Source: Chiloscyllium plagiosum
Lineage: Eukaryota
Assembly: GCF_004010195.1 (NCBI RefSeq)
Contig: NC_057755.1
Coordinates: forward strand, 1,043,306 to 1,107,305
Direction of reading: 5' to 3'
Length of the DNA stretch: 64,000 nt
This document shows positions 1,838-32,807 of this stretch, piece by piece; within the stretch, counting starts at the first letter, position 1; the number at the start of each line of letters is the position of its first letter. The notes under the pieces were generated by a model, which did no database searches, was not told where the DNA came from, and saw only the letters and a program-made list of their open reading frames with translations. The position numbers and the translations under genes were made by a program.

Positions 1838-4680
1838 AAAAGGGTAAGATTCTGAAGGGAGAATATAGGAAGTTAGGCAGGATATTAAAAGGAGGACCTT
1901 GAGGGTCGTCGTATCTGGATTATCCTTGTTGACAAGAACTAGTGAGTCTAGGAAGAGGAGGATAGAGCAGATGAATGCGCGGCTGAATAGTTGGTGCAGG
2001 GTAGATGGGTTCACATTTTTGGATCATTGGAATATTTCTTGGGGGAGAATCTGAATAACGAGGACAGGTTCCACCTAAATTGGAAGAAAACGTATTTACT
2101 TGCAGGAAAATTTGGTCAAGATGCTCAGAAATACTGAAACTAGTAAGGTTGGAGTGTGGGTGCAGGGATGATGGGGAGTGTGGGTGCTGGTGTGGTGTGG
2201 CCAGGGAAATGGTGAGGAAAGAAATCAGTCTGAGACTGATACAGTTGTGAAAAGGAGTACGTGCAATCGCCAGGGCAAGCAGTTTCAAAGCAGAGAATGA
2301 GACAGAACTGACAAACTAAATTATATTTATTCTGCCACAAGATGCCTAACAGGGAAGGCAGGTGATCTGAGGTCATCGTTAGGAACATGGGATTGTGATA
2401 TCATTCGTAATAACAAATATGTGGTTCAGTGATAGACAAGACTGGCAGCTTAAAGTTGCAGGACAGAAATGCTGTAGGAAAGAAATGCAGATGACAAGGG
2501 AAGAGGGGAGTTGCTTTTTGACAAGGGTTAATATGACGGCTGAACGTAGGGATGATATTACCCGGAAAACATCCAGGGAGGTTATTTGGTGGAATTGAGA
2601 ATTATGAACGGGCGGATTTCTTTGTTGGGATTGCACTGGAGAGACCCACTAGTCAGTGGGAAATTGAGAAAAAGATTTGCAAGGGGATCTCAGTTATTTG
2701 TCAGAATGATAGTGTGATGATTGTAGGGGATTGTTAAATTTCCTAACATTGACTGGGTCTGCAACGTTATTAAGTGTAGGGATGAAAGTAATGAAAGGGT
2801 ACCTGAAGAGAGAAGTAGACCCCTCAAAGATCAGCAAGGCAGCCTGTGTGTTAAAGTGCTGAAGATGGCGGAGATAATAAACGAGTATTGTTTATCATTG
2901 TTCACTGTGGAGAAAGAACTGGTATATATACAATGTGAGGAAATAAAAGGTGCCATTTTGAAAAATGTCCATATTACAGAGCAAAATGTGCTCGCTGTCA
3001 AATAATGCATCAAGTTTGATAAATCTCAAGGATCTTATCTGTGGGAAGCTAGGGATATGATTTCTGGACCCTTGTTGAGATACTTGTATCACTAACCATC
3101 GCAGGTGAGGTGTCAGAAGACTGAAGGTTGTCACATGTGTGCCGCTATTTAAGAAAGGTGGTGAGGAAACTCTCCGAACTATAGACAGGTGAGTCTGACA
3201 TTGGTGGTGGGCGAGGTGATGGAGGGAGGTCCTGATCGACAGGATTTACATGTACCCTGTGTTTGGATAGGCAAGGACTAATTAGTGATTGTCAACATAG
3301 CTTTGCATGTGCGAAATCATGTCTCAGGAACTAGATTGGGCTACTTAAAGAAGTAACGAAGAGGTTTGATGAGGGCAGAGTGTTGGATGTGATCCAAGTG
3401 GTCTTCAGCAAGGAGTTTGACAAGATTCCTCATAATAGACTGTCAGCAAGGTTATACCAAATGCAATAGAGGGAGAAGTAGCTATTTGGACGCAGAACTC
3501 GCTCGAAAGTAGAAGATAGAGCATGGTTAGAGTGGGTTGCTTTTCAGACTGGAGGCCTGTGAGCAGTATTGTCTCACAAGGATGGGCACTTAATCGCTGC
3601 TTTGTGTCGTTTATGTAAATGATTTCGATGTGAAAATGGGAAGTATGGTTACTAAGTTTGCAAATGTCACGAAAATTGGAAGTGTAGTAGTCATGATTTG
3701 GAGATGCCGGTGTTGGACTGGGGTGTACAAAGTTAAAAATCACACAACACCAGGTTATAGTCCTACATGTTTAATTGGAAGCACACTAACTTTCGGAGAG
3801 ACGCTCCTTCAGTAGATAGCGAAGAAAGTTACCTCAGTGTACAACTGGATATTGATCAGATCGGCCAATGAGCCGAGCAGTTGCAGATGGAATTTATAAA
3901 TGGCTGATGCTGCATTTTCGAACTGCAAATCAGGGGAGGACCTTTTAACTTAACGGCAAGATCCTGTGGAGTGTTACTGAACAAAGAGACTTTGGATTGC
4001 AGTTTCATAGTTCCTTGAAAGTGGAGTCTTCGGTAGATAGGATAGTGAAGAAGGTATTTGCTATGTGCTCTATTATTGTTCAGAGCCTTGATTATAGGAA
4101 TTGTGAGGTCATGTTGTGGGCAGACAGGACATTGGACAGTCCACTTTTGGAAAAAGTGCGTGCAATTCTGGTCGCCCTCCTGTCAGACGGATGCTGTGAA
4201 TCATGAATGGGTTCATAAGAAATATAGAAGGTTGTTGCCAGGTTCGGAGGGTTTGAGTGACAGGGAAAGGCTGAATAGTCTGGGTATGTTTTTAATGGAG
4301 CATTGGAGGCTGAGGGGTGATATTATACAAGTTTGTAAAATCATGAGGAGTATGGAAAGAATAAATAGACAAACACATTTCCCTATGAGTTTGGTGAGTC
4401 CAGAGATAGAGAGCATAGGTTCTGGGTCACAGAATGTAAAAGGTACCGAATGGAAAATCTTTCTCATGCAAAGAGTGGTGCATGTATAGAATGAACTGCC
4501 AGAGGAAGTGGTGGTGACTGGTACAATTGCAACATTTCAAAGTTAACAGAATGGGTTAATTATTGGAAAGGATTAAAGGGATATGTGAGCAAATGGGATG
4601 ATATTATTACAGAATATCTGGTCAACCATGACGATTTGGACCAATGGGTCTCTTTCCTTGATCTACATTTCTTTGACACG
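1838..4680 (+). mobile_element. Old degenerate CR1 LINE (end of ORF1 plus ORF2 with deletions), intronic in GPCR unit A
   Basis: Colinear with 15365-18060 and 49880-53315; decayed RT and C-terminal peptides (CVQFWSP, RLRGDII); CR1-like 3' end near 4640-4680. Confidence 0.88.
3691..3810 (-). mobile_element. 120-bp Penelope-like terminal-repeat fragment (second family) with a truncated hammerhead core
   Basis: Absent from paralogous CR1 copies (about 17195 and 52440); flanked by AGTAG (3686-3690 and 3811-3815); minus strand reads GA-AGGAGCGTCTCTCC-GAAA-GTTA with the 5' part of CUGANGA lost. Confidence 0.6.
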
Positions 4681-4934
4681 ATCTCCGCCCAGCATGCTAA
4701 CAGCAGTCAAACAAATATTTCATCGTAGATGAATACCAACACTATAAATCTCAATTCCATTTTGGAAATCAATCCCCGTCGTTTGTTTTCAATGACAGGG
4801 ACTTGTGCGAGGAGAATACCGAGTTGATGTTTTGAATTCCTTGAGAAATGTTCAGAGGAAGGTGTTCTGATGAAGAATAATTGCATTAACTCTAATTCTC
4901 TCTCCACTGATGCTGCCACACCTGTTGAGTTTCA

Positions 4935-5386
4935 AGTCAAATTATTCTACTAATCCCAGGTGGTTGGGTTTTAAGTGGTTTGATATAATTTTAACCCCTT
5001 TCATCCCATTCGTGTTAATTCCATTAATGAACATTCTGATGGTCAGGTACATTTTAACGGCCAGTCGAGGCCACAAGAGCCTGAGGAGTCAAAGAAAGGG
5101 AGAGAGTCAAAAATACACAGATATGTAGAGCCGGAAAAAGTCGGTAATTTCCCGCCTCGCCATATCCATCAGCCTCATATTTCTGTGGGTAGTGTACGGT
5201 GCCAACATCCTCTACTTTAGCATTAAAGAAGCACATCATTGGTGGAACTGGCATCTGATCAATTTCACCTGGTCCGGAGAATTGCTGAAGGATTTAAGCT
5301 GCAGCATGAGCACATTATTTTGGGCAGCGACTCTGCCCAAGTTCAGAGCGAAGTTCAAGAATGCGGTGCAGCAATTGGTCACATAA
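4935..5386 (+). pseudogene. GPR139-like GPCR pseudogene copy A (ECL2 to C-terminus only)
   Basis: Colinear with 19185-19636; about 870 bp (acceptor through ECL2) deleted at 4934/4935; in-frame TAG at 5126-5128 where copy B has GAG. Confidence 0.92.
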
Positions 5387-5781: not shown

Positions 5782-6100
5782 GAGTGGGCGGCACGGTGGC
5801 ACAGTGGTTAGCACTGCTGCCTCGCAGCGCCAGAGACCCGGGTTCAATTCCCGACTCAGGCGACTGACTGTGTGGAGTTTGCACGTTCTCCCCGTGTCTG
5901 CGTGGGTTTCCTCCGGGGGCTCCGGTTTCCTCCCACAGTCCAAAGATGTGCAAGTCAGGTGAATTGGCCATGCTAAATAGCCGGTAGTGTTAGGTAAAGG
6001 GGTAAATGTAGGGGTATGGGTGGGTTACGCTTCGGCGGGTCGGTGTGGACTTGTTGGGCCGAAGGGCCTGTTTCCACACTGTAAGTAATCTAATCTAATC
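5782..6100 (+). mobile_element. HE1-type tRNA-derived V-SINE, full length
   Basis: A box TGGCACAGTGG at 5797-5807 and B box GGTTCAATTCC at 5841-5851; V-domain (gtggagtttgcacgttctcccc...ggtttcctcccaca); CR1-like 3' end; (TAATC)n tail; TSD TATGA at 5777-5781 and 6101-6105; site empty in paralogs near 20970 and 56365. Confidence 0.93.
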
Positions 6101-6105
6101 TATGA

Positions 6106-6500
6106 CTGTATTCTTGTGTCTGTGGATGTGTGTGCAATCTGTCCGTGCATCGGCGTGCTCCTTTGTGTCACATTATGTCTGTTTTTCTGGCTCTCTGAGA
6201 GCACGTGTACATGTGTGAGGGGTGTACCCCCTTCTGTATTCCTGCGTGTGTTGCGAGGGTGTGGTAATGTTATTGTGTCTTTGTATAGGTGTGTTATGAC
6301 ATTTCAATTTGACTGTCTTATTGTGCGAATGTGCACTTGCGTGAGTTGCATGTGTGTGAGTGTGTTTTTGTTTATCAGTATGTTCCTATATCTCACTTTG
6401 ACTGTATTTCTGTGTGTGAGTGTGTTTTTGTGTGCATGTGTGTGTGTGATGGTGTGGGCGTGCTTTTGTGTCCCTTTGGGTGTGTTTTTGCCTCTGTCTG
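6106..6500. repeat. GT-rich low-complexity tract downstream of GPCR copy A
   Basis: Degenerate (GT)n, paralogous to 20975-21345 and 56370-56760. Confidence 0.85.
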
Positions 6501-9264
6501 ATCATAAGACTCCGTCTCCTGAAAAATGACAAGTGAACTCTACAGCAGGTCATGATGCACAGAGTTCTGTCAATGGCATATTTCTGGCAACCTGGGAAAT
6601 ATCTGAATATCAATATCAGTACCTCCTGCACTCTAAGAGCTGAACTGTTACTTCAGTTCAAGGACCTAAGTTTAATGAACGAATCAAGACAGAGTAATAT
6701 TCAGTGAAAGGCAGGATGCCAATTCTTTTGTCCAGATTGAACCAAGGATGCAATTTATAAATATTGTTTTCTTGTTGAAGGTGTTTGCGTCCCTCTATAA
6801 ATAAAGTTACATATTGGATCATGAGGCTATACATTGCAGGAGCGGATTAGTCCATTCAGCCCGTCGACTGTGCTCTGCCATTTGATCATGGAGGATCTGT
6901 TTTTCAATTCTACTCTTCTGCCTTCTGCCCATAACTTTTTATTCTCTTCACAATCAGGAACCCATATATCAGTATTGTTAATACATTTGTTAAGGAGCAG
7001 ATTAGACCCTCTCAAAACATGTCAGGATGGTAGCCCAGACCCTAACTCTTCTACTTGCTTTGAGCAGGTGTGGAATGGATATTCCTGGAGTGATGGAGCT
7101 GATTAGGATTCCTCGGTTTTAAATAAAACAGGATATATTTACAGTTTACCGAGTAGAACACAAACAATGGAGAACATAACACAGAATGCATTAACCTAAC
7201 TGAAAACCAACAGATGATGCCAAATTAATGAAATCTCCAAATTCCTGCAACAATCCTGCTCAGCACCACATGTCAAAACAGGTAAAATTAAACACCGGAT
7301 CTTACATGGGAGATGTCAGGGAGAGGTTCAGCATCAAACAATTTCTTCCCTGTCGCTGTTCCTTTTACCATCAATCTAAAAAACTGACTGCTTGCTAACA
7401 CGCAAACCAAACTAAACCATATCAGAGAAAAGCTGAGCTGGGAGAATTCGCCACTCCACTTCCATTGCCTTTTTTGGCTGTAAGAAGCATTTTGCTGAGG
7501 CAGTCTCTGTTAGGTATCATGAAATTCGCCCGACAACACGACCAAACTTGAAACCCCAGAACCGTTGCATTTGCAAACAATGTAAGAAAAAAAAGGTATC
7601 ACAACCTTGGTAGAGGAACAGCACCATCACATATTCAATATCCCGATCTCCACAGCCATCTGCGGCAATGATTTCCATCAATCAACCACGCTGTGGCTGA
7701 CTAAATTCATTCTCAACTCAGTTCTAAAGGTGGTCGCTTCACACTGAGGCCGTGGCTTCCGGTCCTAGTTTCTCCTACATGTCAATAGAGATGTTCACGC
7801 TTTTTCATAAATATTTTTGTGTCTTGGAACCTTTACAGGTGATATACAAGCATTGCCATGCATTGCAGCTGTACACGTTAATAGATGAAATATCGTTCTT
7901 TGGAAGTGTTTATGAGTGCATAAATATTGTCATGTATTGGAACTGTTCCTGTTTATGTATACTGCGCTGTAATGGAACTGTTCATGTTTGTAAATAAATA
8001 TTGTTCTGTATTGGAGCTGTTCCTGTTTATCGATAAACATCAGTGTGTGTTGAAGCTGTGCCTGTCTCCTAATCGTCAGCAACACTGTGTCTGACGATAT
8101 GGTGTGAATGCTGAGCTCCACCTGTGCTTTGGGATGGATCTGCCGTCCCAGTGTCTCCAGGAGGGGTAGCTGCACACAGCAGCATCTGGCACATATTAGC
8201 GGTTTTCAGCAATAAATAGGCAGGGTCATCTGATTTCAAATTATATATTCGGGGAATAATGACTGAAGAGCACCGGGGAACAGTGAGAGTTAAAAAGAGA
8301 CAGAGTAGGCGTTAAAGATTGTAATAGACAGACAATTCACGAGCGAATAATTTGGAAAGTATTAAACTAACAGTATTAAGGAGAAGATTAAATAGAAAGT
8401 AATAGGACATGGATTTTTAAAATTGAACAAGGATAGGATTAAATACAGAAGAAGAGCATATAATTTAAAATAAAGTAATGGAGAGAGGGGTAAATGGAGA
8501 GGTATGGAAAGAAGATGGAGTAGAGTGGAGCAGGCAAAGGGTAAAAGAAAGGGGAAAGGGAGAGGATTGAATTCAAAGTAATAGGAGGAGAGATATACAC
8601 AGATATATACAGTAGAATGAAGTATGTTGATTTCGCGGGGTGCAGGTGAGAGGGTTAATGCAGGAAACGCTGTAGTGATTATAATAAGATCAGTCAGGTG
8701 GATCTCAAGGGCCCCCTTACACCCCACCCGGTCCCCACAAAAGCCCTTTGTTCTTCAGCTTTCTGCAGTTGTTTTACATTGAAAAAAGTAGTCAGTTCTT
8801 GTCCTCTGCTGCACTGCTTCGATGCCAAGTGTACTCTTCCTCAGATGAAGAGACCCAAACTGGGCTACTCCATCAGGAGTGGGTATGTCCAGTCTCCATG
8901 GAATTGCAGACCTGTACCATTCCCTCCTGAGCTCAAGTCCATTATCTCCAAAGTAGCATTTGCCTTTCTCATAGCCTGCTGCACCTACACGTTGGCTTCC
9001 AATGACTCAGGAACAAGGACAGAAAGCGATCCCTTTTGGTGTTCAAAACATCTCAATCCCTATAATTTATCAAAAATTCTTTCAGATTATTTCTCCTCTA
9101 ACAAAATCGCTAACATCACATTTATTTATGTTTCATCTGTCATGTTATTTCTCAGACACTCCATACTCTCCACACTCAGAAAACAACTATGCACACCACA
9201 ATGCAATCATCGATCTCTGCAATATTACATCTGCAGTGATCTACAGTAAGCAGGTTAGCAGATT

Positions 9265-10705: not shown

Positions 10706-10889
10706 TATTCGAAATTCATTTTTCAAAGTTTGCTATTTACTGATTGAGATTTGTATCATCTAGTAAATGTCAGTTCCAATAATACCCGATGGCCACTGGG
10801 AGTTAAGTCCCTACCGTCACCTGATTGTTCAAATAATAATTGAATTCAACCACATTGTGATGTAACATCCCCCAGACATTGTCATCGGG

Positions 10890-10896
10890 TATAAAT
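10890..10896 (+). promoter_or_regulatory. Candidate TATA box of GPCR copy B
   Basis: TATAAAT about 75 nt upstream of the exon 1 ATG; conserved at 45152-45158 in copy D. Confidence 0.6.
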
Positions 10897-10970
10897 GAAA
10901 GGCTTTGAGATTGTATCTCCTCGGTATTGAGTACAGAGAGATCGCCTGCACAAAGAGATTCAGACAGAAA

Positions 10971-11037
10971 ATGCCGTTCTCATTTGGTCATTTACGGTCA
11001 ATATTTTACACGACCTTTCCGTTTGTAACAATTCCTA
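10971..11037 (+). CDS. GPR139-like GPCR copy B, coding exon 1 (MPFSFGHLRSIFYTTFPFVTIP plus 1 nt)
   Basis: ATG with A at -3; 67-nt open frame ending at a GTAAGT donor (11038); phase 1 matches the acceptor at 18761; supplies the missing first half of TM1; conserved at 45233-45299. Confidence 0.8.
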
Positions 11038-11334
11038 GTAAGTGCCTTGCAACATTGAATTTATGTGAAACTGGCTGAGGATTATCTGCGGGTTCACTCT
11101 GCCACTGACAAGTATAAATGTGCATGTTGTTCCCAAAAGTCACACAGTGGCAGAAGATCAGTAATTTAGTCTCAGATTACGGACACTCCTTAGAATCCCC
11201 AACATCGCAGATTCCGAAGGAACTGCCTGGGAAATTATTCATCTCTTCTGGGAACTGCCAGAATTCATTTCCACTTAAATCCGACACCACGGAGAATGTC
11301 GAAGAATGAAGAAAATGAATCATTTTGGAAATTA

Positions 11335-12315
11335 TATGCGGTAGTATTTTTATGTAGAAAGTACAAAATCTTTTAGTTTGTGTTTGCTTCTAATTCTTTT
11401 GAGTGAATAAGCAATCGGATTCTGTGACCATCTGAATTTAATGGTTACCTTGAAATTATTGGTTTTATTGAATTTAATGGTTACCTTGTAATCACAGAAA
11501 TTTGTTTTAAAAATCACGTTTGGGATTTGACTATAGGCTGAATGGGTTTGTGCACGAGTGAACCTTTGTTTACTTTTGATGCTTGCAATCGAACATAATA
11601 TTAATGGAGTCTGAAAGATATGGAGTTTGGGATTATAGAAGAAAGCCGTAACTGAGGAAGCATAACTTTCACTTCTTTCATTTCATCACTTTCTTTGATC
11701 CCTGTAAGAGCCTGAGTGGACGAAAAGATCAGCGCTCAGGTGAAGGAAAGGAAAGATTTGGTAAATTCCATTGCCTTGGATTGAAAATCTTGTGCTGGTC
11801 CCAGGCAGAAGTGCTATCACAAAAAAAAAGTTCTGAAGAGATTGTTTAAAGCTGATTACGTTGACATTCAGGTATGTCGGAGCTCCAGGTAGAAATTTAC
11901 TGCAGTTCCAGTTTAAAAATGGCAGTCACAAGTCATTTAACCAAATCACAGATACTGGGAGCCGGGTGTGAGTATTATGTGAGGGTTTTTTTTTGGAACG
12001 GCACTGGGAGTCGTGTTTTGTATGATATAAAGACGTTGTATCTTTTTATGCTTTGAGGTTAATGGGAATTATACATTTATTCTGTGTTCATTGCCTTTGA
12101 ATCTGCATTTTCAGTACGTAGTTTAGTTTATTCCATTTTGTCGTCATTTTGTTTGTAAGAAACTTCTGTTATGTTGTGGAGGCAATATTTGTAGCATTGT
12201 GTGTTTACGATTCAGCAAGAGATCACTTTGTAAAATTAATACAAATGAGGTTGAAATTCATTAAGCTGGGTTTCTATCGATGATCTGGCTTGTTCTTTAA
12301 TAGGTATCAGAATAT
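11335..12315. mobile_element. Possible old solo LTR or other ~1-kb interspersed repeat in intron 1
   Basis: Discrete AT-rich block, paralogous to about 45595-46597, which ends ...cagctggtatcagaaca like an LTR end; termini decayed. Confidence 0.35.
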
Positions 12316-12403
12316 CAGTGAGGCGATTAAATACTTAGACACACTCCTGAAGAACTGATTATCTAATCCCACACATCAAGGAGGTTGTGCTGCAACCATG
12401 AGA

Positions 12404-12576
12404 CAGTGAGGTCTGCAGATGCTGGAGATCAGAGTTGAGAGTTTATTGCTGGAAAAGTACAACAGGTCAGGCAGCATTCGTGGAGCAGGAAAATCGACGT
12501 TTCAAGCCAAAGTCGATTTTCCTGCTCCTTGCATGTTGCCTGACCTGCTTTGCTTTTCCAGCAATGCACTCTCAAC
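12404..12576. mobile_element. Fold-back Penelope-like terminal-repeat element (inverted arms 12434-12498 and 12512-12576)
   Basis: Family head gtgaggtctgcagatgctggagatcagag; ~65-bp imperfect inverted repeat; central hammerhead region collapsed. Confidence 0.75.
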
Positions 12577-12810
12577 AGTGCCCCGACAATATCCTTCTGG
12601 ATCCATTATGTGCTCTAGACCCTGATCAGACACCCACGTTCAGATGTAATTCCATAATATCCATCACAAATTTACTACTCTCACTCTGAGCCACAGCCTA
12701 CACAAAATAAATTCCCTCACCCCCTGCTAGACCTGAAACACTGAAACTAAATGAGACACTGGGTGGCTCACACATATGCGGTTTAGTGCACAGTTTTGGT
12801 CATCTCCGAG

Positions 12811-12968
12811 AAGAAAGTGAGTACTGCAAATGCTGGAGTTCAGAGTCGAGAGTGTGTTGCTGGAAAAACACAGCAGGTCATGTAGCATCTGAAGCAAGAG
12901 ATTCGATATTTCTGGCAAGAGCCCTTCATCAGGGCTTATTTCCTGCTCCTCGGATGCAGCCTGAACTT
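12811..12968 (-). mobile_element. Penelope-like terminal-repeat element with a degenerate hammerhead core
   Basis: Same family head; minus strand 12933-12904 reads CCTGATGA-AGGGC-TCTT-GCCA-GAAA-TATC; short inverted arm follows. Confidence 0.7.
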
Positions 12969-14399
12969 TTTGTCACCACCAAGCAGTGAGGACAGAATTG
13001 CTGTAAGGAGAGTACAGACGAGATTGACAACAATGGTGTTAGTATGTGGAAATTACTGCATCATTGAGGAAAGATGCCTAAGGTAGTGTCATGTTCCATG
13101 AATAGAGGTGCATGACATTTATCATGATTGGGATGCACAAAATCATCAGTCTGTGGATTGGGAACATATCTCCCCGAACGCAGAACCATTTACCAGGAAA
13201 CACAGAGTGAACAGAATTGATGGGAGGATTATGAAGGACATGAGGACTACCATTTTATTGAGAAGATGATGGTGCGACTGGAATTCACTGCCTAGTTTTA
13301 ATGGTGGCTTGAGGTGACAAACCTTAACTCATTTAAATGAAACTTTCAACGTCAGCTGAAATATTCAATGCTGTAGAACAGGTGCTGGAAAGTGGGATCA
13401 GCACAGGGAGTTAATTTATCAATTGAAGCAGACTTGAATGACCTGTTTCAGTGCATAACTTTCATACATTTCCATGGGATTGTAGAAAAACTGAGGAGTG
13501 CTAAAGTGAATTTGCTTGCGTGGTAGAGTGCGGTTAAATGGCCTGTTTCTATATTGTCCATTTCAAGCATTAGAACACTGTGGATTGTTAAAGTAGATTC
13601 CAGAGGGTGTGGCTACCTTCCAGTCGGTCGCTGTAGAAGTGTTTGTGGGTTCATACTTCTTCTAATGTAAATAGCAACTTTACATGGGGAGGAAGAATAT
13701 TAACTGAAGTTCGAACATAAGAATGTATTAATTCATTAGTTTAATATTCATTACGTTGTTTAGTTGTCTCATTAAAATGGAAAGTTCTTATAAAAGAAGT
13801 GTTATGAAATCCTGTATTGTCGATGAACTGCTGAGTACTCAGCTTATCAATTTAAACGTTAATTACCCCGACATGATTAGAACAGAATAGAGTGTCAGAG
13901 AGAACTGATTTTATCAGGCTATATTTTATTATATAATGATTTGGAGCTGCCACATTCTATACATGCAGTAGTGAACTGTCTGCTCGCATGTGCATTGTGT
14001 AGTTTATTCATAAAATATCAATAAGCACATTCCAAAACGATTTGATTCAGATAATGCAGGAAATGCAATATAAATTTCAAAGCTCCCCATTTGCATTTTG
14101 CATTATTTGCTGATTGAATGTACAAGCCAAATTAGAACATTTCCGAAACTTGACAAGGAATTGTTCACTTTCCAATACAAACTATGAGGGATTCCGTGTG
14201 TTAACAGATCTTCAGTTTATCGTCTCAAAGAAGAGTCAGATCGTGGTTTGCACCTTTGATAATGAAGCAAACCTTTTCAGCTCTGTTGTTATTGCCCGTC
14301 AAACAATCACATCTGCTCAAGTGCAACAACTCATGCTTTTGTAATAAAAATGACCAGACGATTCCAGGTAATCCCAAATAGAGAAAGGGAAAAGATTGT

Positions 14400-17300
14400 G
14401 GCTGTGAGAGCTAATCCTTGTTTAAGGTATTTCAGGTGTCGGTGCTGAAGTACACAAAATCATCGAATATAAATTATCGTTTTATGAGTTATTGCATTGC
14501 TTTGGAAATTTGGGGAAACGAAAGATCAAAGCAACATAACTTAAAAATGGAGGGACTTTTGTGGGAGTGTTCACAGCACAAGAGCAGTTAAGTGCATGGT
14601 TTGTAAGCGTAATCTGTTTTTGTGTACATTGTATGATGTTGAGTGAGTTGTTTATGATCTGTCACTTCATTAAAAAATACAAATATAAAGCACAAGCACG
14701 ATATCAACCTTGAGCTGTGTCTTTTGAACCAGTAAGACTATGGCATTTTCTGGCCTGTAGATAATCGAGGTGCACAAATCGCCTTCAGTACAGTGATGTA
14801 CTCTTCCTGTCGGATGTGGGAGATTTGGGAGACTTTCCATGTTACTGATGATTCTGTCTACAGTAAATATGTTTGGTTGTGATTTCTATCAGATTGCATG
14901 GATCGGTTGGAGCAGTAGTTGGAGGCAATGAGGAATTTTCAGGAGCTCGGGAGTCTGATGGATGGCAGCTACAGGAAGAGAGAACAAAAGCAGACACCAT
15001 CTAGTAGATGGGTTATCTTAAGGAAAGGCAGGAGAGAGTGCAGGAGTCTCTGGTGTCTATACCCATTTTAAACAGTTATGCTGTTTTGGAAAATGCCAGG
15101 GGTGATGGACTCTTAGGGAATACAGCACGAATAGCCAAGTTTTTGGGACCAAGACTGGCTCAAATGTAATGAGGATTATGTCAGTTTCCGAGCGATAAAT
15201 TGTGAAAGGGGATTCTCTCGTCAGTGGCACAGACAGACGTTTCTGCGGCCAAGAGTGCTTATTACCTCTTGGTGCCAGGATCAAGGATATCGTGAAGAGC
15301 GTGCAAAATATTCTTAATTGAAGTGGAACCATCAGGAGGTCATTGTGTGCATTGGAACTAAAAGCATAGAAAGGAAAAAGGATTAAATTGTGAAGGGAGA
15401 ATATAAGAAGTTAGATAGGAATTAAAAAGGAGGTCCTTGAGGGTCGTCATATCTGGATTAACCTTCTTGACAAGGGCTAGTGAGTTCAGGAATAGGAGGA
15501 TAAAGCAGATGAATGCGTGGCTGAGGAGCTGGTGCAGGGTAGATAGGTTCACATTTTTTGGATCATTGGAATATATTTGGGGGAAGAAGTGACCTGAATA
15601 ACGAGGAAAGGTTGCAGCTGAATTGGAACAAAACTCATTTACTGGAAGGGAAATTTGCTCGAGATGTTCAGGAATATTGAATCTAGTAAGGTTAGAGTCG
15701 GGGGTGCAGGGTTGGGGGGTGGGGGGTGGTATGCGTGGTGTGGTGTGGCCAGGGAGATAATGAGTAAAGAAATCAGTCTGAGACTGATACGGTTGTGAAA
15801 AGGAGTTTTTCCAATCATCAGGGCAGGCAGGTTCAAAGCAGAGAATGAGCCAGGACTGACAAACTAATTTATATTTATTTCTGCACAAGATGCCCAACAG
15901 GGAAGGCAGGTGATCTGAGGGCATCGTTACAAACATGGGACTGTGATGTCATTGCAATAACACAATTGTGGTTCAGTGATAGACAGACTGGTAGCTTAAA
16001 GTTGCAGGACAGAAATGCTGTAGGAAATAAATACCGAGGCAGGCATCCTTGCAAGAGGATTCGCAGTAGGGGACAAGCGAAGACGGGAGTCCAGAAAGTG
16101 TATGTTCCTGTTGATTTAAAAGGTGAGTCTGGGAGGTCTAGGTTTTGGTTAAGAAAAAGAAGGAAGCATTCGTCAGGTATAAACAGCAGAGGTCGAGCCA
16201 ATCCTGAGGAGAGTATAAAGGCAGTAGGAGTATGCTTAAGAGGGAAGTCAAGAGGACATATGGCCGCTTTGGCAAAAAAGGATTATGGAGAATCCAAGGG
16301 GATTTCATAAATGCATCAGGATGAAAGGGTACCTGAGGAGAGAAAAAGACCCCTCAAAGATCAGCATGGCAGCCTGGGTGTGGAGCTGCTGAAGATTGCG
16401 GAGGTACTAATCAAGTATTGTATATTATTGTTCACTGTGGAGAAAGACCTGGAATATATGGAATGTGGGGAAATATATGGCACTATCTTGAAAAATATCC
16501 ATATTGCAGAGCAGGATGTGCTGGCTGTCAAATAATACCTCAAATTTGATAAACCTCCAGGATCTAATCTGTGGGAATCTAGGGATGTGATTGCTGCACT
16601 CTTGTTGAGATACTTGGATAACCAATCATCACAGGTGAGGTATCGGAAGACGGGATTTTGTCTCATGTGTGCCGCTGTTTAAGAAAGATTGTAAGGAAAA
16701 TTCAGCGAACTATAGACTGGTGAGCCTGACATTGGTGGTGGGCGAGGTGGTGTAGGGAGATCCTGATAGACAGGCTTGACATGTACCCTGTATTTGGACA
16801 GGCAAAGACTAATTAGTGTTTGTCCACATGGCTTTGCATGTGGGAAATCATGAGCTTTTTAAAGAAGTCACGAAGAGGATTGATGAGGGCAGAATGGTGG
16901 ATGTGATCTATGTGGACTTCAGCAAGGAGTTTGATATGGATTATCATGGTCAACTGTTAGCAAGGTTATACCAAATGCAATTGAGGGAGAACTAGCTATT
17001 CGGATACAAAACTCGCTCGAAAGTAAAAGACAGAGTGTGGTTAGAGTGGGTTGCTTTTCAGACTGGAGGCCTGTGACTAGTGGGGTCCCACAAGGATGGA
17101 TGCTTATTCGGTGCTTTGTCTCGTTTATGTAAATGACATCGTTGTAAATATGGGAGGTATGGTTACTAAGTTTGCAAATGTCACTAAAATTGGAAGTGTG
17201 GTAGACAGCGAAGAAAGTTGCCTCAGTGTACAACGAGATATTGAACAGATAGGTCAAAGGGGCGAGGAGGTGCAGGTGGAGTTTAATTTCGATAAATGGG

Positions 17301-18062
17301 AGATGCAGCATTTTGGAATGGCAAACCTGTACACATAATGGCAAGATCCTGGGGAGTGTTGCTGAACAAAGAGACCTTGAAGTGCAGTTTCATAGTTCCT
17401 TGAAAGTGGAGTCAATGGTAGATCGGATAGTGAAGAAAGTGTTTGTTATGTGCTCCATTATTTTTCAGAGCATGGATTGTACGAGTTGTGAGGTCATGTT
17501 GCGGTCAGACAGGACATTGGTTAGTCCACCTTTGGAAAAAGTGTTTGTAATTCTGGTCGCCCTCCTGTCAGAAGGATGGTGTGAAACATGAAGGGGTTCA
17601 TAAGAAATTTAGAAAGATGTTGCCAGATTGGGACGGTTTGAGCGACAGAGGAAGTCTGAATAGGCTGGGTCTGTTTTTAATGGAGCGTTGGAGGCTGAGT
17701 GGTGATCTTATAGAACTTTGTAAAATCATGAGTGGTATGGAAAGGATAAATAGACAAACAATTTTACTCTGGGGTGGGAGGGTCCAAAGGTAGAGAGCAT
17801 AAGTTCAGGGTCACAGGATGTTAAAGGTACAGAATGGAAAATCTTTCTCATGCAACGGGCGGAGCATGTATAGAATGAACTGCCAGAGAAAGTGGTGGAG
17901 ACTGGAACAATTGCAACATTTCAAAATTAAACAGATGGGTAAATTATGAGAAAGGTTTAGAGGCATATGGGGGCAAATGGGATGATATTATTATAGAATA
18001 TCTGGTCAACCATGACGATTTGGACCAATGGGTCTGTTTCCTTGCTCTACACTTCTTTGACA
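14400..18062 (+). mobile_element. Near full-length old CR1 LINE in intron 1 of GPCR copy B (5'UTR, ORF1 with GDSL/SGNH esterase remnants, decayed ORF2)
   Basis: ORF1 remnants SSCRMWE (about 14800), KGDSLVSGTDRRFCG (15205-15250), GARIKD and VIVCIG; ORF2 RT remnants 16650-17900; CR1 3' end about 18020-18060; 5' boundary approximate. Confidence 0.85.
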
Positions 18063-18761
18063 CGATCTCCGTCTAGCATGCTAACAGCAGTTAAACAAAT
18101 ATTTCATCGTAAATGAATACCAACAATATGAATCTCAATTCCATTGTGGAAATCAATCCCCGTCATTTGTTTTCAATGATAGGTCCTTGTGCAAGGAGTA
18201 AACCGAGTTGATGTTTTGAATTCCTTGAGAAATATTCAGAGGAAGATGTTACAATGTAGAAAAATTGTATTAATTCTAATTCTCTCTCCATAGCTACCAC
18301 ACCTGTTGCGTTTCACCAGCTACATCTGTTTTATTTTCATATTTCTGGTATCCATAGTTCTTTTATTTATTTTATTAAAAAATTTCACTTCTCAGAAGTA
18401 ATTCTTAGAATTGTGGAATCTGACTGTACCAAAGAGGTCTGTTAGTCCATCAAGTCTGTGCTATCAATGCTGGACTATATATGGTCTCGTCCCAGATGAC
18501 TGTCAAAGTTTGAAACGTTTCCAACATCTGAAACCCTCCCAAGCACTGAATTATTAGAACCCGCACCATTACCTGGGTGAAAGTCTTTTTCACAAATGTC
18601 CTCCAATCTGTCTATGAGTCACCTTAAATATTATGCCCTTTTGCCACCTGCCAATTCCTTGTTCAACTTAGATTTGAAGATATTCTATTGCTCTCTTGGC
18701 AGACATGGACAATGATTGATCAGTGACTTCCGATTTGTATTTTAAATTCTGTCTCTTTCAG

Positions 18762-19636
18762 TTAATTTCCTGCTGATTTTGGTTCTCTCACGGGGAAAGT
18801 GTGGCCTCTCTAACTGCACAACCCGCTGCCTATTGGCTATGGCAATGTCGGATCTACTGTTCATTCTCACGAAGGTCATGCTATGGCATTGGAAAGAACT
18901 TTACTGCCAAGGCTGTTTCCTCACCATCACCCCTGTGTGCAGAACTGTCTTTTTCCTGATGCGTGTTGCCACAGACTGTTCTGTCTGGTTCACTCTTCTT
19001 TTCTCCTTTGATCGTTATGTGGCCATTTGCTGCCTGAAACTGAAGAGAAAATATTGGGTAGAAAAAGCCCAGGCTGTGGCTCTGGCTGCAACCAGCATTC
19101 TGGTCTGTTCAAAAAACATTCCCTTCTATTTTCGGAATAAACCTGCGTCAATAGTTGACAATGTTCCGAGGTATTGCCAGATAAAGTCAAGTTATTTTAC
19201 TGATCCCAGGTGGCTGGGCTTTAAGTGGTTTGATATAGTTTTCACCCCTTTCATCCCATTCGTGTTAATTCTGTTGATGAACATTCTGATGGTCAGGTAC
19301 ATTTTAATGGCTATTCGAGTCCGGAAGAGACTGAGGGGTCAGACGAAGGGAGAGAGTCACAAAGACACAGATATGGAGAACCGGAGGAATTCGGTGATTT
19401 CCCTCCTCGCCATATCCATCAGCCTCATACTTCTCTGGGTAGTGTACGGTGCCAACATCCTCTACTTTCGTATTAAAGCAGCACATCGTTGGTGGAACTG
19501 GCGTCTGATCAATTTCACGTGGGTCGGAGAATTGCTGAAGGATTTAAGCTGCAGCACGAACACATTATTTTATGCAGCGACTCTGCCCAAGTTCAGAGAC
19601 AAGTTCAGGAATGCGGTGCAGCAATTGGTCACATAA
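18762..19636 (+). CDS. GPR139/GPR142-like class A orphan GPCR copy B, coding exon 2 (313 aa with exon 1)
   Basis: Pyrimidine tract and acceptor tctgtctctttcag at 18761; uninterrupted frame NFLLILVLSRGKCGLS, TM2 LAMAMSDLL, TM3 FSFDRYVAICC, TM5 PFVLILLMNIL, TM6 RRNSVISLLAISISLILLW, TM7 SCSTNTLFYAATLPKFR; TAA at 19634-19636. Family-level call, not an orthology claim. Confidence 0.9.
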
Positions 19637-19874
19637 ATTCTTCACTTACAATGGAAAGATGATGGAAAAAGGCTGGAGGAATGATTCTAAATGATTGACT
19701 GGCTGTGAGTGATGTGTTCCGCTGGAACATTGGGTCTTCGCAGACTACCCTTTGGATGAGTGTTAAAGGCTGGCAAGAGGGGTCTCTGCTTTTCTCCTGC
19801 AGGGGAGGAGGGGTGGGACAGAAACAGCCGTTCCAGCACCATGACAATTGCCAGACTCTCTCTGTTCAGCTCGC

Positions 19875-19880
19875 AATAAA
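19875..19880 (+). terminator. Candidate polyadenylation signal of GPCR copy B
   Basis: AATAAA about 240 nt after the stop; also present in A (5626-5631) and D (54875-54880); reads AATAAT in C. Confidence 0.5.
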
Positions 19881-19999
19881 CATTTTATAACAGCAAGGAA
19901 AGGCTCCAGGTGTTGGTGATTCCCCTCATCTGAATTGGCTATTGGAGATTGAGAGAGGTTTGTGAGTCCACCTCCTGTCAACATCCTTCACAAGGATAT

Positions 20000-21350
20000 T
20001 GCTTTCTCTCTCTCTGCCTCGTTCCGTCTTTCTTTGTTCCTCTCCTCCTCTATCGTACTGTGCCTAATCTCTCAGCTTCTTGTTCAGCTTCTCGCTGTCT
20101 CTCTGTTTCTCTCACTCTTCGTGACCCTCCCTGTCTGTATCTTTTTCTCTCTCTCTCTCTGCCTGTTTTTCTGGCTGGCTGTCTGTCACCCTCTCTGCCT
20201 ATCCTTCTTTGTCTCTCTATCCCTCTCACTCTCTGTCTCTCCTTCGCGCTCTCTGTGTATTTTTTTCACATTGACCACGTCAGTCACAGATACAGCCAGA
20301 AATCCTTTGGCACATTACTGTTAGTAAGTCTGCTGAACTTTGATCATTTCCATTTCCTCTCCCTGTGGCTGTGAGGGAGGTGTGTTCATGTGTCTTCCGT
20401 TCAGTTTGTGAGGGTCTCTGTGTGTCTCTGTGTTGGGGAGGGGACCTCATTGCATTTATGGGGATCTCAGACTGTGTGTGTGTCTTTCGGTTTTTGTCGT
20501 CCCTGAGTGTGACACATTATGACTGTGTTTACGCATCTGAGAGTGGGTTTCCCTTTGTGCGTATTGGGAAGTATTTCTGTGATTTCGCATTCATGTCTTT
20601 ATGTGTTTGGGAATCTTATTCAGGCTGTATGAGAGTGTTTCCCTGAAGGTGAGTGTTTTATGTGGCTGTATTTAACTGCCTGTGTTTGAATGTGTGCATG
20701 TGTATGTTTCAGAAGTTTCTATAAGTTTTTGAAGGCTGGTGTCGGATGTCTCTTACTCTGAGTTCGTTTGTCGATGTGTGTAGGGGTGTGGCTGTGATTC
20801 TGTGTCTGTGTGGGGATGTGTTCCTATATCTAAGTATGAATGCATTTCTGTGAGTACGGGTATGTGTGCATTAGGTATGCACATGGGTGTGTTCCTTCTT
20901 CTGTCAGTCTGTCTGTACTTGTTATGGGCGTCTGTGTGTGTGTGTGTGTGGATTTGTTCCTTTCTCTCAGTATGACTGTATTTCGGTGTCTGTGGATGTG
21001 TGTGCATTCTGTCCGTACATAGGCGTGTTCCTTTGTGGTACATCATGTCTGTTTTTTTTCTGGCTGTCTGTGAGCACATGCACGTATGTGAGGGGTGTAC
21101 CTCCTTCTGTATTCCTGCGTGTGTTGTGAGGGTGTGAAATTTTATTGAATCTTCGTATAGGTGTGTTCTCACATTTCAATTTGACTGTGTTATTTTGCGA
21201 ATATTCATGTGTTTTTGTTTATCAATATGTTCCTATATCTCACTTTGACTGTATTTCTTTGTGTGGGTGTGTTTTTGTGTGCATGTGTGTGTGATGGTGT
21301 GGGTGTGTTTTTGTGTCCTTCTGGGTGTGGTTTTGCCACTGCCTGATCGT
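20000..21350. repeat. CT-rich then GT-rich low-complexity region
   Basis: Degenerate (CT)n at about 20000-20270 and degenerate (GT)n at about 20370-21350. Confidence 0.9.
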
Positions 21351-24479: not shown

Positions 24480-24700
24480 TTGTCATCAGATCGGGCAGCT
24501 GGACCATAGTGGATTTGAAATCCCTGACTGGAGCTGTTAATCTCTGCCAGTCAGTGAGACCTGGCTGATTCTAAAGGATGGAGAACGGCGATACTGAGAT
24601 GTTGAAAACCTATCTCAGTGAGAGGCTTCTGCCAAAGGCTCTGCATTTGTAAATAAATGCTGATTAATGGCCGTATGCCATACTCTGAAGTGTTGGTGCC
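24480..24700 (+). mobile_element. Probable degenerate solo LTR
   Basis: Starts TGTCAT; contains ccctgactggagctgttaa...ccagtcagtgagacctggctga and tgtaaataaa; homologous to 62066-62280 and 9265-9428. Confidence 0.5.
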
Positions 24701-25671
24701 AATGTGGACCAGGACCAAGGGCTCCTCACTTTCCACACTTTCCCGCTCTCACCTCTGTTCCATCCACAGTCCATCCCTCCCCAAAAGTGTCCTGAAAATT
24801 TTCTATGACGTTCACGACCCTGAGTCTGAGATGAGTAACGTTTTCAAGAGAATAATGGAAACTACTGACAGTAAATGGATGGAAAGGCTTCTTGTTGCCG
24901 CTTAACTTGGAACGAGGATGAGCATCTAAATGTTTGTCAATGTTTGGAAGTTTTTCCAAGACTGAAATGAATTGACAATGCCTCGCATTTCTCGACATGA
25001 TATTGCACAGAGCATTTGTGTTCATTCACGCATGAACCTGTCCTTCCCCTTCTCAGCGATCCTATGTCCTCTTTGTCTTTTACTGTCCCACCTGACATTG
25101 TGCTATCAACAAACGTCAGACATGATTCGATCATCTCAGTCATTGATAGAGATCATAAATGGCTGTGTGTGGAGAAATTATCCTTGTCTCACTCACTGGT
25201 ACCAGACCGACAACATGAAAATGACATATTTATTCCTGCCCTCTGTTTCCTGCCCTTTATCATGCTTCACGCCAAGTCCCATTTTCCCATCACCACAGGC
25301 CTCATTGACAACAGTGACTCCCGCTAAAATAATTCCAGAGTTTGATATTTCTGCATATTTGTGTGCGCAAATCCCTCACTAGCTTTACTCCATCATTTCA
25401 CTTGAAGCTGGTAAAAACCATCATCAGTCAGGTGTTTTCGGTTTCTTCTCTATACATGAGCAGTACAGTTCAGGGACCAGAGAAAAACTCATCCGCATGT
25501 GCTGTTGCACAGATCGTACGTGTCTTAGAGTCAGCTCTGAAACATGTCCAGGACACTCATATCCTGATAGGAGGATCCGTATTGATTGAAGCTTATGTAA
25601 CCACTGAGGGTATTTTTCAGTGAATCCTTTTACTTGTTTCAATTATTGCCTGAATTGGCGAAGATATAAAG

Positions 25672-27030
25672 TCAGAGAGTCATAGAGATGTACAGCATGG
25701 AAACAGACCCTTCGGTCCAACCCGTCCATGCCAACCAGATATCCCAGCACAATCTAGTCCCACCTGCCAGCACCCGGCCCATATTCCTCCAAACCCTTCC
25801 TATTCCTATACCCATCCAAATGTCTCTTAAATGTTGTAATTGTACCAGCCTCCACCACATCCTCTGGCAGCTCATTCCATACACGTACCACCCTCTGCGT
25901 GAAAAAGTTGCCCTTCCGTCTCTTTTATATCTTTCCCCTCTCACCTTAAACCTATGACCTCTAGTTTTGGACTCCTCAACCCCAGGGAAAAGACTTTGCC
26001 TATTTATCCTATTCATGCCCCTCATAATTTTGTAAACCTCTATAAGGTCACCCCTCAGCCTCCTACGCTCCAGGGAAAACAGACCCAGCCTGTTCAGCCT
26101 CTCCCTGTAGCTCAGATCCTCCAACTCTGGCAACATCCTTGTCAATCTTTTCTGAACCCTTTCAAGTTTCATAACATTTTTCCGATAGGAAGGAGACCAG
26201 AATTGCACGCAATATTCCACAGTAAATACTGATGCAAAATATTAATTTAGTAACTCCCCCATTTTCTGTGGCTCCACACGAAGGCCGCCTTGCTGATGTT
26301 TAAGGGGCCCTATTCTCTCCCTAGTTACGCTTTTGTCCTTCATATATTTTTAAAACCCCTTTGGATTCTCCTTAATTCTATTTGCCAAAGCTATCTCACG
26401 TCCCCAGTTTGCCCTCCAGATTTCCCTCTAATTATACTCCTACTTTGTTTATACTCTTCTAAGGATTCACTCGATCTATCCTGTCTTTACCTGACATGTG
26501 CTTCCTCCTTTTTCTTAACCAAACCCTCAATTTCTTTCGTCATCCAGCATTCTCTACACCTACCAGCCTTCCCTTTCACCTTGAGAGGAATATACTTTCT
26601 CTGGACTCTCGTTATCTTATTTCTGAAGACTTCCCATTTTCCAGCTCTCCCTTTACCTGCGAACATCTGCCTCCAATCTGCTTTCGAAAGTTCTTGCCTA
26701 ATAATGGCCTTTCTCAAATTTAGAACTTCAACTTTTAGATCTGGTCTATCCTTTTCCATCACTATTTTAAAACGAATAGAATTATGGTCGCTGGCCCCAA
26801 AGTGCTCCCCCACTGACACCTCAGTCACCTGCCCTACTTTATTTCCCAAGAGTAGGTCAAGTTTTGCACCTTCTCTAGTAGGTACATCCACATACTGAAT
26901 CAGAAAATTGTCTTGTACACACTTAAGAAATTCCTCTCCATCTAACCCTTTAACACTATGGCAGACCCAGTCGATGTTTGGAAAGTTAAAATTCCCTACC
27001 ATAACTACCCTATTATTCTTACAGATAGCT
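25672..27030 (-). mobile_element. CR1/HER1-type LINE, endonuclease region fused to the C-terminus and 3' end (RT deleted at about 26220)
   Basis: ORF 26487-27002 has APE motifs GNFNFPNIDW, PTREGAKLDLLL and SDHN; ORF 25672-26220 has EYCVQFWSP and RRLRGDLIEVYKI; 3' end at about 25675. Confidence 0.93.
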
Positions 27031-29446
27031 TCCAGTTGCTGGAAAGTCTGATCAGAACAGGAGTTAGTTTATTCAAATGATGGAGACATGAATAACCGCT
27101 TTCAGTTCCCTAACTTTCCTGCAAGTATACGGGATTGCAGAAAGACTGAGGAGTGTTAAAGTGAATTCACTTGGTGGGCTGAATGGCCTATTTGTGTGCT
27201 GTACGTTTCTATAAATTCTGAAGTCTCATTGGAACACTGTGCAGTGATAAAGTGAATTCCAGAGGGCTGTGACTACCATCCAGTTATTCCCTGAAGAAAA
27301 GTCTGTAGCTTCGTAATTTTTGCAATTTTTAAATGCACAAAGTATTTGTTCACAGGAATAAATAATTGTAATGAAGATTAGAGCACAGGAATTTTTGAAT
27401 TCGATCATTAGTTTAGTATTGTTTCCTTGTTTAGTCCCTTTCATCATAAAATGAAGAGATTTTCTTTTAAAGAGGGAAGTGATGTCTTTTCCTATCTATG
27501 AACTGCTGTGTAATTGGATGATCAGTTCCAATATTAGTTGCCCCGACATGATCAGAACACAACAGAGAGTTTTACATGGATTGCAGCAGCCGAGCTCAAT
27601 AATTGTGGTGTTGACCTCTTCAGTTTTGAAATATGTAGTTTATTCACAGAATATCAATAAGCACATTTTTATAAAAACTATTTTAGTCAGACAAAGTAGT
27701 GAGTGCAGTAGAAATGTCACATTTCCCTATTTGAATTTTGCATTCTTTGCTGATGCAATGTACAAGTAAAATTAGAACATTCGCGATACATGACAAGGAA
27801 TTTTTGATTTTCCAAACCAAGATATAAGACACTCATTGAGTTAAGACCTTAGCTAGTGGGTTGTGACTTTACCGATGAACCAAAAAATTTTCAGCTCATA
27901 TACCATTCTCCTTTGAATAATTACATCTGCTCAAACGCAACAACTCTTATTTTTGTAATATGATGATTGTGGGTACTACGAGATGGAGGACAGGAAGTAG
28001 CTGTGGCTGCATCAAGTTCTCCTTTTCTGAACGATTTTAGGTGTTTGGACTGATTTCTTTGAATTCTGGGAACAATTATTACTATTTTACCAGCTGTTGC
28101 ATTGTTGTGGTTCTTTGGGGGAAAGACATCAGATCAACAGCTCTTTGGAAAGGAGGAAGAGACACAAAGGAAGTGACCACATGGTCAGGGGCAGAGATGG
28201 AAAGAAACGTATACTGCTGCCTGACACAGCATTGAATCTGCACAGCTTCAGCCTTTACTGTTTGAGCTCATGTATTTCTGGGCATTAGAGTGCACCTGAG
28301 CAATATGAACAAACAGCAAACCTCACAGTTGACCTTAAAGAAACCTGCGTGGGAGAGCTCACAGCACGGGAGCACATAAGAGCACGTTTTTAAGTCTAAT
28401 CTTACTGATTTTTTTTATAAATCTACAGTAGTAAGTAGGGTGGGCTTTCTTTGGTTGTATATTTCTTTTTTACGTCTCTTGATTCAAATTTGAAAACATA
28501 AAATAGTAGGCACTAAGTAAGCATGGAAGACTGTGGTTCAAAGCAGTAATACTTCGTTATTTCCTGATTCCAGAAATTATTCCGATGCAAAGATCACCTT
28601 TGTAGACTTATGAACTCTTCCTGTCACATGTCGGAGATTCGGGAGAGTTTCCAAATGACTGATAATTAAGTGTGTTTGCCTTTGAATCATGTCAAATTAC
28701 ATCGATCGATTGGAGCAGAGGGTTAGAGACAATGAGGAATTTATAGCAGCTGGAGTGTGTGATGAATAGCAGCTCCAGGACGAGAGAAATGTCGCATATA
28801 CAGTTAGGTTGCCGCCAGGAAAGGTAGGAGAGGAAGGCAGGTAGTGCAGGAGTCTGCTGTAGATATCCCCGTCTCAAACAAATATGTTGCTTTTTGAAAA
28901 TGGAGGAGATAGACACTCAAGGGAAAGTGGTACAAAAACAACTAGGTTTCTGGTACGGAGTCAGTCTCCAATGTAACGACGGGTATGTCAGGTTCCAAAC
29001 GATCTGTTATGTTCGGGGACTCTCTAGTCAGAGACACAGACAGATCTTTCTGCGGCCAACAACGATAAATCAGAATGTAGTTTCTCTCCATGGTGCAGGG
29101 GGCAGGGATATTTCAGAGAGCGCGGAGAATATTCTCAGAAGGGAGTGGGATGAAGTGATGAACTGAGGGCATTGTTCTGAGCATGGGACTGGGATGTCAT
29201 AGCAATGACACAGAAGTATTTCAGGCATTGACAGGATTGGAAGCTTAAAGTTGCACGATAGAAATGCTGTAGGAAGGAAAGAAAGGTCGACAAGAGAAGA
29301 GGGGGAGTTATGTTTTTGGTAAGGGATAACATAAGGGCTGTACTTAGGGAGAGTGTTCCTGGGAATGCATTATTTGGGGGGGAACTGAGAATGAAGGGAG
29401 GGATGATCACTTATTGATATTGTACTATAGAGCCACCACCACCTCT

Positions 29447-29466
29447 CCCCCCCCCCCCCCCCCCCC
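29447..29466. repeat. Poly-C homopolymer (C20)
   Basis: 20 consecutive C. Confidence 0.95.
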
Positions 29467-29485
29467 ACCTAATAGTCAGTGGGAA

Positions 29486-29888: not shown

Positions 29889-30080
29889 AGTCAGTGGGAA
29901 ATTGAGAAACGTATTTGTCAGGAGGTCTCAGTTATTTGTAAGAATAATAGCTTCGTAATGACAGGTGATTGCCTCAGAGTTAAATTTTGAATGTAGAGGA
30001 ATTTTAACGTCAGTATATGAACATTTTTTCATTCAGTCTGTGGAGATACCGACTAGAGAACGTGACTTCTTGGATTTATG

Positions 30081-32760: not shown

Positions 32761-32807
32761 GATTTGTGGGACTTGGGCGTCGCTGACTGGCCAGTATTGA
32801 TATCACA

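Follow-up and report, generated by a model that had tools for sequence, protein, structure and literature searches.

Gene model of copy B

We analyzed a stretch of 64,000 nucleotides (nt) from Chiloscyllium plagiosum (NC_057755.1; C46:1043306-1107305 of its 3.56 Gb genome), hereafter the window, whose own positions are used below. Four copies of a receptor body (copies A to D) were identified in it by tblastn and blastn, arranged head-to-tail. The copy studied here, copy B (body at 18764-19633), is likely to be an intact class A G-protein-coupled receptor (GPCR) gene with two coding exons, predicted to be joined into a product of 313 residues. The coding part of exon 1 (10971-11037, + strand) is 67 nt long and consists of the ATG at 10971-10973 and the following codons, 22 in all (MPFSFGHLRSIFYTTFPFVTIP), plus the first base of codon 23. 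A TATA box (TATAAAT, 10890-10896, +) can be read in the sequence about 75 nt ahead of the ATG, and may act as the promoter. The putative phase-1 intron of 7,724 nt (11038-18761, +) opens with the donor GTAAGT (11038-11043) and closes with the acceptor ...tctgtctctttcag (18748-18761; AG at 18760-18761); it is rich in repeats and has a polypyrimidine tract ahead of the acceptor AG. The coding part of exon 2 (18762-19636, +) completes codon 23 with its last two bases and continues through 290 codons, Asn1.50 to Thr313, to the stop codon TAA (19634-19636). A predicted 3' untranslated region (UTR; 19637-19880, +) would end at the polyadenylation signal AATAAA (19875-19880). Either AATAAA or ATTAAA was present within 500 nt past the stop in five of 12 loci examined, copy B (L001) included.

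Joining 11037 to 18762 completes the split codon A+TT (Ile) and yields a coding sequence of 942 nt, i.e., 313 codons and a single terminal stop, with the DRY motif at residues 106-108. Exon 1 would code for the N-terminus and the outer half of the first transmembrane helix (TM1); TM2-TM7, helix 8 and the remaining, inner half of TM1 would come from exon 2. The initial annotation had proposed this TATAAAT, ATG, 67-nt exon, GTAAGT donor, acceptor, phase-1 join, 313-residue product and DRY motif, and all of them agree with the sequence. It had also held that the exon-2 frame lacks a real ATG, and indeed there is no ATG in this frame, which a TAA shuts six codons ahead of Asn24. Enumeration of phase-1 ATG...GT mini open reading frames (ORFs) between 5700 and 18761 gave 185 candidates. 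A crude filter (donor match plus hydrophobic tail) was passed only by the exon-1 candidate and by three artefacts in a TG-rich low-complexity stretch, and the candidate at 10971 was the only one homologous to the first exon of the family. No other homologous first exon was found upstream of copy B exon 2 by profile, blastn or mini-ORF scan.

Conservation of the two-exon layout among paralogues

Support for the two-exon structure came from comparison with paralogues. Exon 2 queried against its own genome returned 135 scored matches (all E <= 1.8e-84) among 7,317 otherwise unscored first-look candidates, and in-frame stops were counted by hand in 22 of the 135. The acceptor was conserved in all 19 paralogues examined, 11 close and eight distant. 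Specifically, in each of the 11 closest (70-74% identity) the frame is shut 8-12 codons 5' of Asn1.50 and the pattern ...ttctgat..(y)n..cag/TT AAT is kept (the slash marks the splice site), and the same pyrimidine tract followed by cag/TT AAT occurs in 8/8 distant paralogues (52-54% identity).

A 131-nt exon-1 probe gave 40 scored matches in the same genome (115 first-look candidates) at 80-92% identity, and those that were paired with a body lay 5.4-9.2 kb upstream of it on the same strand. Ten of 12 upstream stretches fetched contained an exon-1 module, and aligning these ten with copies B and D produced a set of 12. Every module in this set has TATAAA (the GGTATAAATGAAAGG-type TATA motif), an ATG, exactly 67 nt with neither stop nor indel, and a GT donor, which reads GTAAGT in 11 modules and GTGAGT in one. 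No column of exon 1 is gapped, against 2-25 in the flanks, and mean pairwise identity stays at 0.81-0.84 through intron position +60 before falling to 0.67. The last exon-1 base is G in 11 of the 12 (Val) and A in copy B only (Ile). A profile built from the 12 modules matched the promoter, 5' UTR, exon 1 and intron start of copy B at 10801-11203 (+) with E 5.6e-128 in nhmmer, and its only other match in the window was the module of copy D (45057-45466). In the two remaining fetched stretches, those of L013 (G000:C46:175900-185899) and L018 (G000:C46:242380-252379), the bodies are intact and no exon-1 module lies within 10 kb upstream; their first exons are either farther off or lost.

The same layout was recovered at greater distance. 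Scanning 10-20 kb upstream of three distant paralogues revealed in each its own 67-nt ATG...G/GT exon, 1.4-9.6 kb ahead of the body, so that paralogue introns span 1.4-9.6 kb. The exon-1 peptide of one of them is identical at 21/22 positions to the N-terminus of an annotated bamboo-shark model (P0050). At least 49 of the best 120 database relatives begin 22-23 residues ahead of Asn1.50 (41 with 23 residues, as in copy B, and eight with 22); a further 24 were not anchored by the Asn1.50 pattern, and several of these display the 22-23-residue form by eye.

As judged from sequence comparison, the 67-nt exon followed by a phase-1 intron before Asn1.50 is the architecture predicted for the whole family in this genome. 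On the same basis the assignment of exon 1 to copy B appears secure and its gene structure is very probably as modelled above. The two-exon join, 313-residue product and short N-terminus put forward in the initial annotation are thus backed both by paralogues and by annotated shark relatives. Its description of the exon as hidden holds for ORF finders, but this is the standard first exon of the family. Since the two-exon layout is the family norm, copy B would be an ordinary and likely working member of it.

Receptor identity and family

Exon 2 matched the Pfam profile 7tm_1 (PF00001) with E 1.7e-17 and 64.2 bits, against a cutoff of 30.5. The match aligns exon-2 residues 1-250 to profile positions 2-244 of 260, and its start at position 2 indicates that exon 2 begins in the middle of TM1. 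The class A hallmarks, numbered from motifs, are N24 (N1.50), D53 (D2.50), C82 (C3.25) and the ECL2 cysteine C161, D106-R107-Y108, and W249 (W6.48), while the TM7 motif, NPxxY in its usual form, reads NTLFY, without proline. Twenty-three residues precede Asn1.50, and the first intracellular loop (ICL1) is SRGKCGLSNCTT; the columns of the family ICL1 motif RGKCGLSxCTT have near-zero entropy.

A total of 796 proteins were retrieved from the databases at E <= 1e-3. The best 120 all come from elasmobranchs (51-74% identity, 91-100% query coverage, E down to 6e-140), and most are named "probable G-protein coupled receptor 139" at the source, a name also carried by the nearest Atlas clusters. Neither copy B itself nor any protein more than 74% identical to it was among these best 120 of 796. 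The annotated models compared include P0001 (Chiloscyllium punctatum, 317 residues), P0050 (326 residues) and many from Heterodontus, Scyliorhinus, Cetorhinus, Mustelus, Pristiophorus, Rhincodon, and rays. Their resemblance to copy B, at the identities given above, extends over all 290 exon-2 residues, and the ICL1 motif RGKCGLSxCTT, DRY/DRF and NTxxY are common to both. So is the N-terminus of 22-23 residues and, where this could be checked in the present genome, the 67-nt first exon. In length and pattern the exon-1 peptide of copy B agrees with those of annotated relatives. The residues differ: the peptide of the copy B subfamily follows MTFS..H.R.IFYTTLPFVTIP, whereas other models follow M....x...KIYYxILAxIGVP.

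When copy B alone was compared with solved structures, the CCK-B receptor ranked first (E 8e-7) and GPR139 did not pass E 1e-5. With a profile of 41 family sequences, GPR139 (7VUG, 9M42) ranked first (E 4.8e-15, 58.7 bits), and the next structure, the PrRP receptor (E 1.9e-9), was weaker by six orders of magnitude in E. The alignment of the family profile to human GPR139 (PDB 7VUG) runs through the exon-1-encoded half of TM1 (yy..l...g.p.N), D-R-Y/F is found in both, and both have a proline-less NxxxY in TM7 (NFFLY in GPR139, NTLFY in copy B). The motif SRGKCGLSxCTT of ICL1, with two cysteines (window 18791-18826), is nearly invariant in 98 family sequences and does not occur in GPR139 in the profile alignment.

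According to the available text of PMC7318219, GPR139 and its paralogue GPR142 are class A orphans for which L-Trp and L-Phe act as activators, the gene encoding GPR139 consists of two exons, and its human and zebrafish orthologues share 70% identity. Set against such conservation, the 58.7 bits of the family profile argue that copy B is not a GPR139 orthologue. GPR139 is moreover a single conserved gene, whereas the shark family counts at least 135 loci in one genome. Among solved structures GPR139 would be the nearest, though distant, relative of the shark family, at a similarity below that expected of orthologues. Further orphans resembling GPR139 and GPR142, "GPR210A/B", are described from gar, coelacanth and ray-finned fishes in the available text of PMC6504862. 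Like the shark family they are non-mammalian orphans standing beside GPR139/GPR142, but as presented in that text they are small gene sets without expansion, from a survey without sharks, and the likeness is one of description only.

By its sequence, copy B is to be placed in an elasmobranch expansion automatically named "probable GPR139", whose members are apparently GPR139-like kin and not GPR139 orthologues. The initial annotation had called it GPR139/GPR142-like and the group expanded in cartilaginous fish; the names of the 120 best matches and the profile search agree with this, with the kinship being distant and not orthology. Our literature search on GPR139 in sharks and cartilaginous fish found no description of the expansion. 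Copy B is correctly annotated as a new addition to a shark receptor family that is known but apparently unstudied.

The tandem array

The other three copies in the window are all disrupted. Copy A (4934-5383, +) is a pseudogene reduced to the final ~150 exon-2 codons and has an in-frame stop. It is 89% identical in nucleotides to positions 19184-19633 of copy B, and the counterpart of 18315-19184 is deleted. Copy C (37332-38182, +) is a diverged exon-2 pseudogene with a frameshift, several stops and no exon-1 module. Copy D consists of an intact 67-nt exon 1 (45233-45299, +) followed by GTAAGT and preceded by its own TATA box at 45152, and of an exon-2 pseudogene (54025-54638, +) disrupted by a 262-nt deletion and by several stops, one of which lies in ICL1. 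That copy D retains the same first exon had been noticed in the initial annotation and is borne out here. Units B and D align across ~11 kb at 83-86% identity, and the upstream region of a fifth unit begins at the end of the window (62816-63998). With three of the four copies dead, the array would evolve by birth and death. Copy B had been called the one functional receptor here: it is the sole intact copy of the four, and its function is a matter of likelihood, as weighed below.

Several other features of the window were noted. Unit C (24591-38917) is the most diverged (68-77% identity to B). Its promoter/exon-1 module is gone, and a retrotransposon-like insertion occupies the place expected for that module (~25672-27068). 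A low-complexity frame rich in Cys, Val, Leu, and Ser recurs ~300-1000 nt past each of the four bodies (6089-6529, 19934-20374, 39209-39724, and 56054-56455, all +). It is part of the duplicated unit and is probably a degenerate microsatellite, not a gene. Inspection of the ORF list by eye also revealed a 395-codon frame with reverse-transcriptase-like motifs (34058-35245, -) and shorter frames with the shared tail "...LEYCVQFWSP...RLGLFSLE.RRLRGD.IEVYK" (25672-26241, 30266-30649, and 33689-34057, all -; 4049-4489, +), all of which look like fragments of non-LTR (long terminal repeat) retrotransposons.

Functionality of copy B and alternative readings

We consider it fairly probable that copy B is functional, a view that rests on patterns of sequence change. 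Copy B deviates at nine of 141 subfamily-conserved protein columns (others 0-13), at 14 of 129 conserved promoter columns (range 6-19), and at three of 54 conserved exon-1 columns (range 1-5). For exon 2, pairwise comparison with nine paralogues gives ratios of non-synonymous to synonymous substitution rates (dN/dS) of 0.45-0.57. Taking the non-coding divergence between B and D as the neutral rate (K 0.13, 6.25 gap openings per kb), simulated decay since the B/D split left 870 nt without stops or indels with a chance of ~0.007, or ~0.02 if in-frame indels were allowed. The copy B branch also accumulated about half as many changes as the branches of its sibling pseudogenes (20 vs 34 and 12 vs 27).

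A number of observations weigh against this reading. The intactness test was applied to a copy picked post hoc as one of four. Non-synonymous to synonymous changes on the copy B branch are 14:6 (vs D) and 9:3 (vs A), small counts that are indistinguishable from neutrality, and the ratio of non-synonymous to synonymous proportions (pN/pS) in exon 1 is 0.87. Copy B alone among the 12 modules has A in place of G at donor position -1. Exon 1 of copy D is intact though its exon 2 is dead, so an intact exon 1 proves nothing about function. A search for sequencing runs containing exon 2 returned no RNA run. Contigs from sequencing runs X1-X4, of unknown kind, cover the intron and cross the acceptor unspliced, and these runs therefore behave like genomic DNA; the 11037/18762 junction was absent among the joints shown for these DNA-like runs, with 20 and 39 further joints lying outside those shown. 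Depth was zero on both exons in X5 (single-cell RNA, ~2% read), X6 (single-cell RNA, 0 reads placed) and X7 (RNA-like), and X14 contained nothing, outcomes that have no bearing on expression. As to the protein, a Kyte-Doolittle profile of the joined product has six clear hydrophobic segments, including TM1 at ~10-34 across the exon junction, and a weak TM7 below threshold. AlphaFold, given the exon-2 product aligned with 40 relatives, returned a model of low confidence (predicted local distance difference test, pLDDT, 50; predicted template modelling score, pTM, 0.34), so that only its helix count is usable. Secondary structure assignment of this model with DSSP gave a 9-residue half helix, six long helices and helix 8, a count that fits, weakly, a seven-helix receptor once exon 1 is added.

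Part of these observations would also be expected if copy B had the right two-exon anatomy but were silent, or were a recently released young pseudogene not yet hit. The branch ratios lie near the neutral expectation of ~3:1, and the exon-1 pN/pS, the unique A at the donor and the post hoc choice point the same way, as do the death of three of the four copies in the window and the in-frame stops in 22 of the 135 scored loci. Such a young pseudogene would have had to stay intact since the B/D split, for which neutral decay leaves only the small chances given above; the copy B branch has roughly half the changes of its siblings' branches, and copy B is no outlier at conserved protein or promoter columns. 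We regard this reading as distinctly unlikely.

A second alternative is that exon 2 is served by another start. The automatic models of its closest annotated relatives use such starts. Unlike copy B as modelled here, the nearest models, P0001-P0003 (Chiloscyllium punctatum), read through to an upstream ATG, and P0004 (Hemiscyllium) has an unrelated, repeat-derived first exon with the reverse-transcriptase-like motif KFADDTRI. The stretch read through in P0001-P0003 is, however, the conserved polypyrimidine/AG acceptor (compare 18700-18763), the frame upstream of exon 2 is closed in copy B and in 11/11 close paralogues, and no other homologous or plausible phase-1 first exon exists between 5700 and 18761. 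This makes another start very improbable for copy B. The NCBI models P0001-P0004 seem to carry wrong first exons, i.e., automatic pipelines appear to have mis-modelled the first exon in the nearest relatives of copy B. Least credible is a variable-first-exon cluster, as in the clustered protocadherins, in which several exon-1 modules (that of copy D, or one 10 kb before the window) would splice to one body: it could accommodate the intact module beside the dead body of copy D and the dead copy C body without exon 1, but every module that was paired precedes its own body by 1.4-9.6 kb, one to one and on the same strand, the copy D module is downstream of the copy B body, and the whole pattern is that expected from decay of whole-unit duplicates. 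The read-through start, the other first exon and the variable-first-exon cluster were all rejected for copy B on comparative evidence.

Reads of X5 and X7 matched copy B only in its intronic repeats. In the DNA-like runs, summed k-mer depths range from 1e4 to 3e5 in three intron bins (12330-12941, 16002-16307, and 16920-17531), and the RNA runs matched no other parts. These bins represent interspersed repeats of high copy number, transcribed at some location in the genome.

Topology, variability and proposed mode of action

Across 98 family sequences, the outer side has a mean entropy of 1.43 bits and the cytoplasmic side one of 0.63 bits (Mann-Whitney p 2e-15), with sides assigned from motif anchors and the low-confidence AlphaFold model. 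The outer side holds 28 of the 30 most variable positions. Variable regions comprise the tops of TM2, TM3 (85-90), TM4, and TM6-TM7, and the second extracellular loop (ECL2) around Cys161. This pattern resembles that of odorant receptors; the likeness is suggestive only, because outer loops vary more in many GPCR families.

If copy B is an active gene, transcription would start ~25-30 nt past the TATA box and the transcript would end past the AATAAA. Without exon 1, which would contribute ~10 extracellular residues along with the outer half of TM1, exon 2 could not encode a seven-helix protein. As the ectodomain is almost nil, the receptor would most probably bind a small ligand within its transmembrane pocket. 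The outer halves of TM2-TM7 together with ECL2, where paralogues differ from one another, would line this pocket. Signalling would proceed through the conserved cytoplasmic face, made up of DRY, the ICL1 motif RGKCGLSxCTT, the base of TM6/TM7, and helix 8.

Comparison with chemosensory receptors and significance

The vertebrate OR, TAAR, and ORA/V1R families form tandem arrays of chemosensory GPCR genes under birth and death, and most of their genes have a single coding exon. The shark family is like them in its head-to-tail arrangement, many pseudogenes, relaxed dN/dS (~0.45), and very short N-terminus, as well as in having variation in the outer, ligand-facing half and a constant signalling face. 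Unlike in these families, the coding region is split in TM1. In the available text of a catshark sensory atlas, no GPCR is among the 50 genes most specific to "brain & olfactory epithelium" (PMC11979771). The four classical olfactory families are described as tiny or V2R-dominated in sharks in the available parts of PMC6368271 and PMC10116579. We tentatively raise the possibility, itself somewhat unlikely, that copy B is a working unit of a chemoreceptor repertoire specific to cartilaginous fish. Such a repertoire, of hundreds of genes or more, would derive from a GPR139-like amino-acid sensor and combine hypervariable pockets with a constant signalling face, and it would be the large family of small-molecule receptors that sharks otherwise appear to lack.

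For the locus itself, the result is a corrected gene model, as ORF finders show only a headless frame of 290 codons. Copy B represents an intact, clonable member of the family with defined exon boundaries, and a simple annotation rule for the whole family can be drawn from its 67-nt exon together with the promoter module and the phase-1 intron preceding Asn1.50. The family, with at least 135 near-full-length loci in this genome, is the more interesting object than copy B. Should it turn out to be sensory, the family would be relevant to the way in which sharks, with so few classical receptors, smell or taste.

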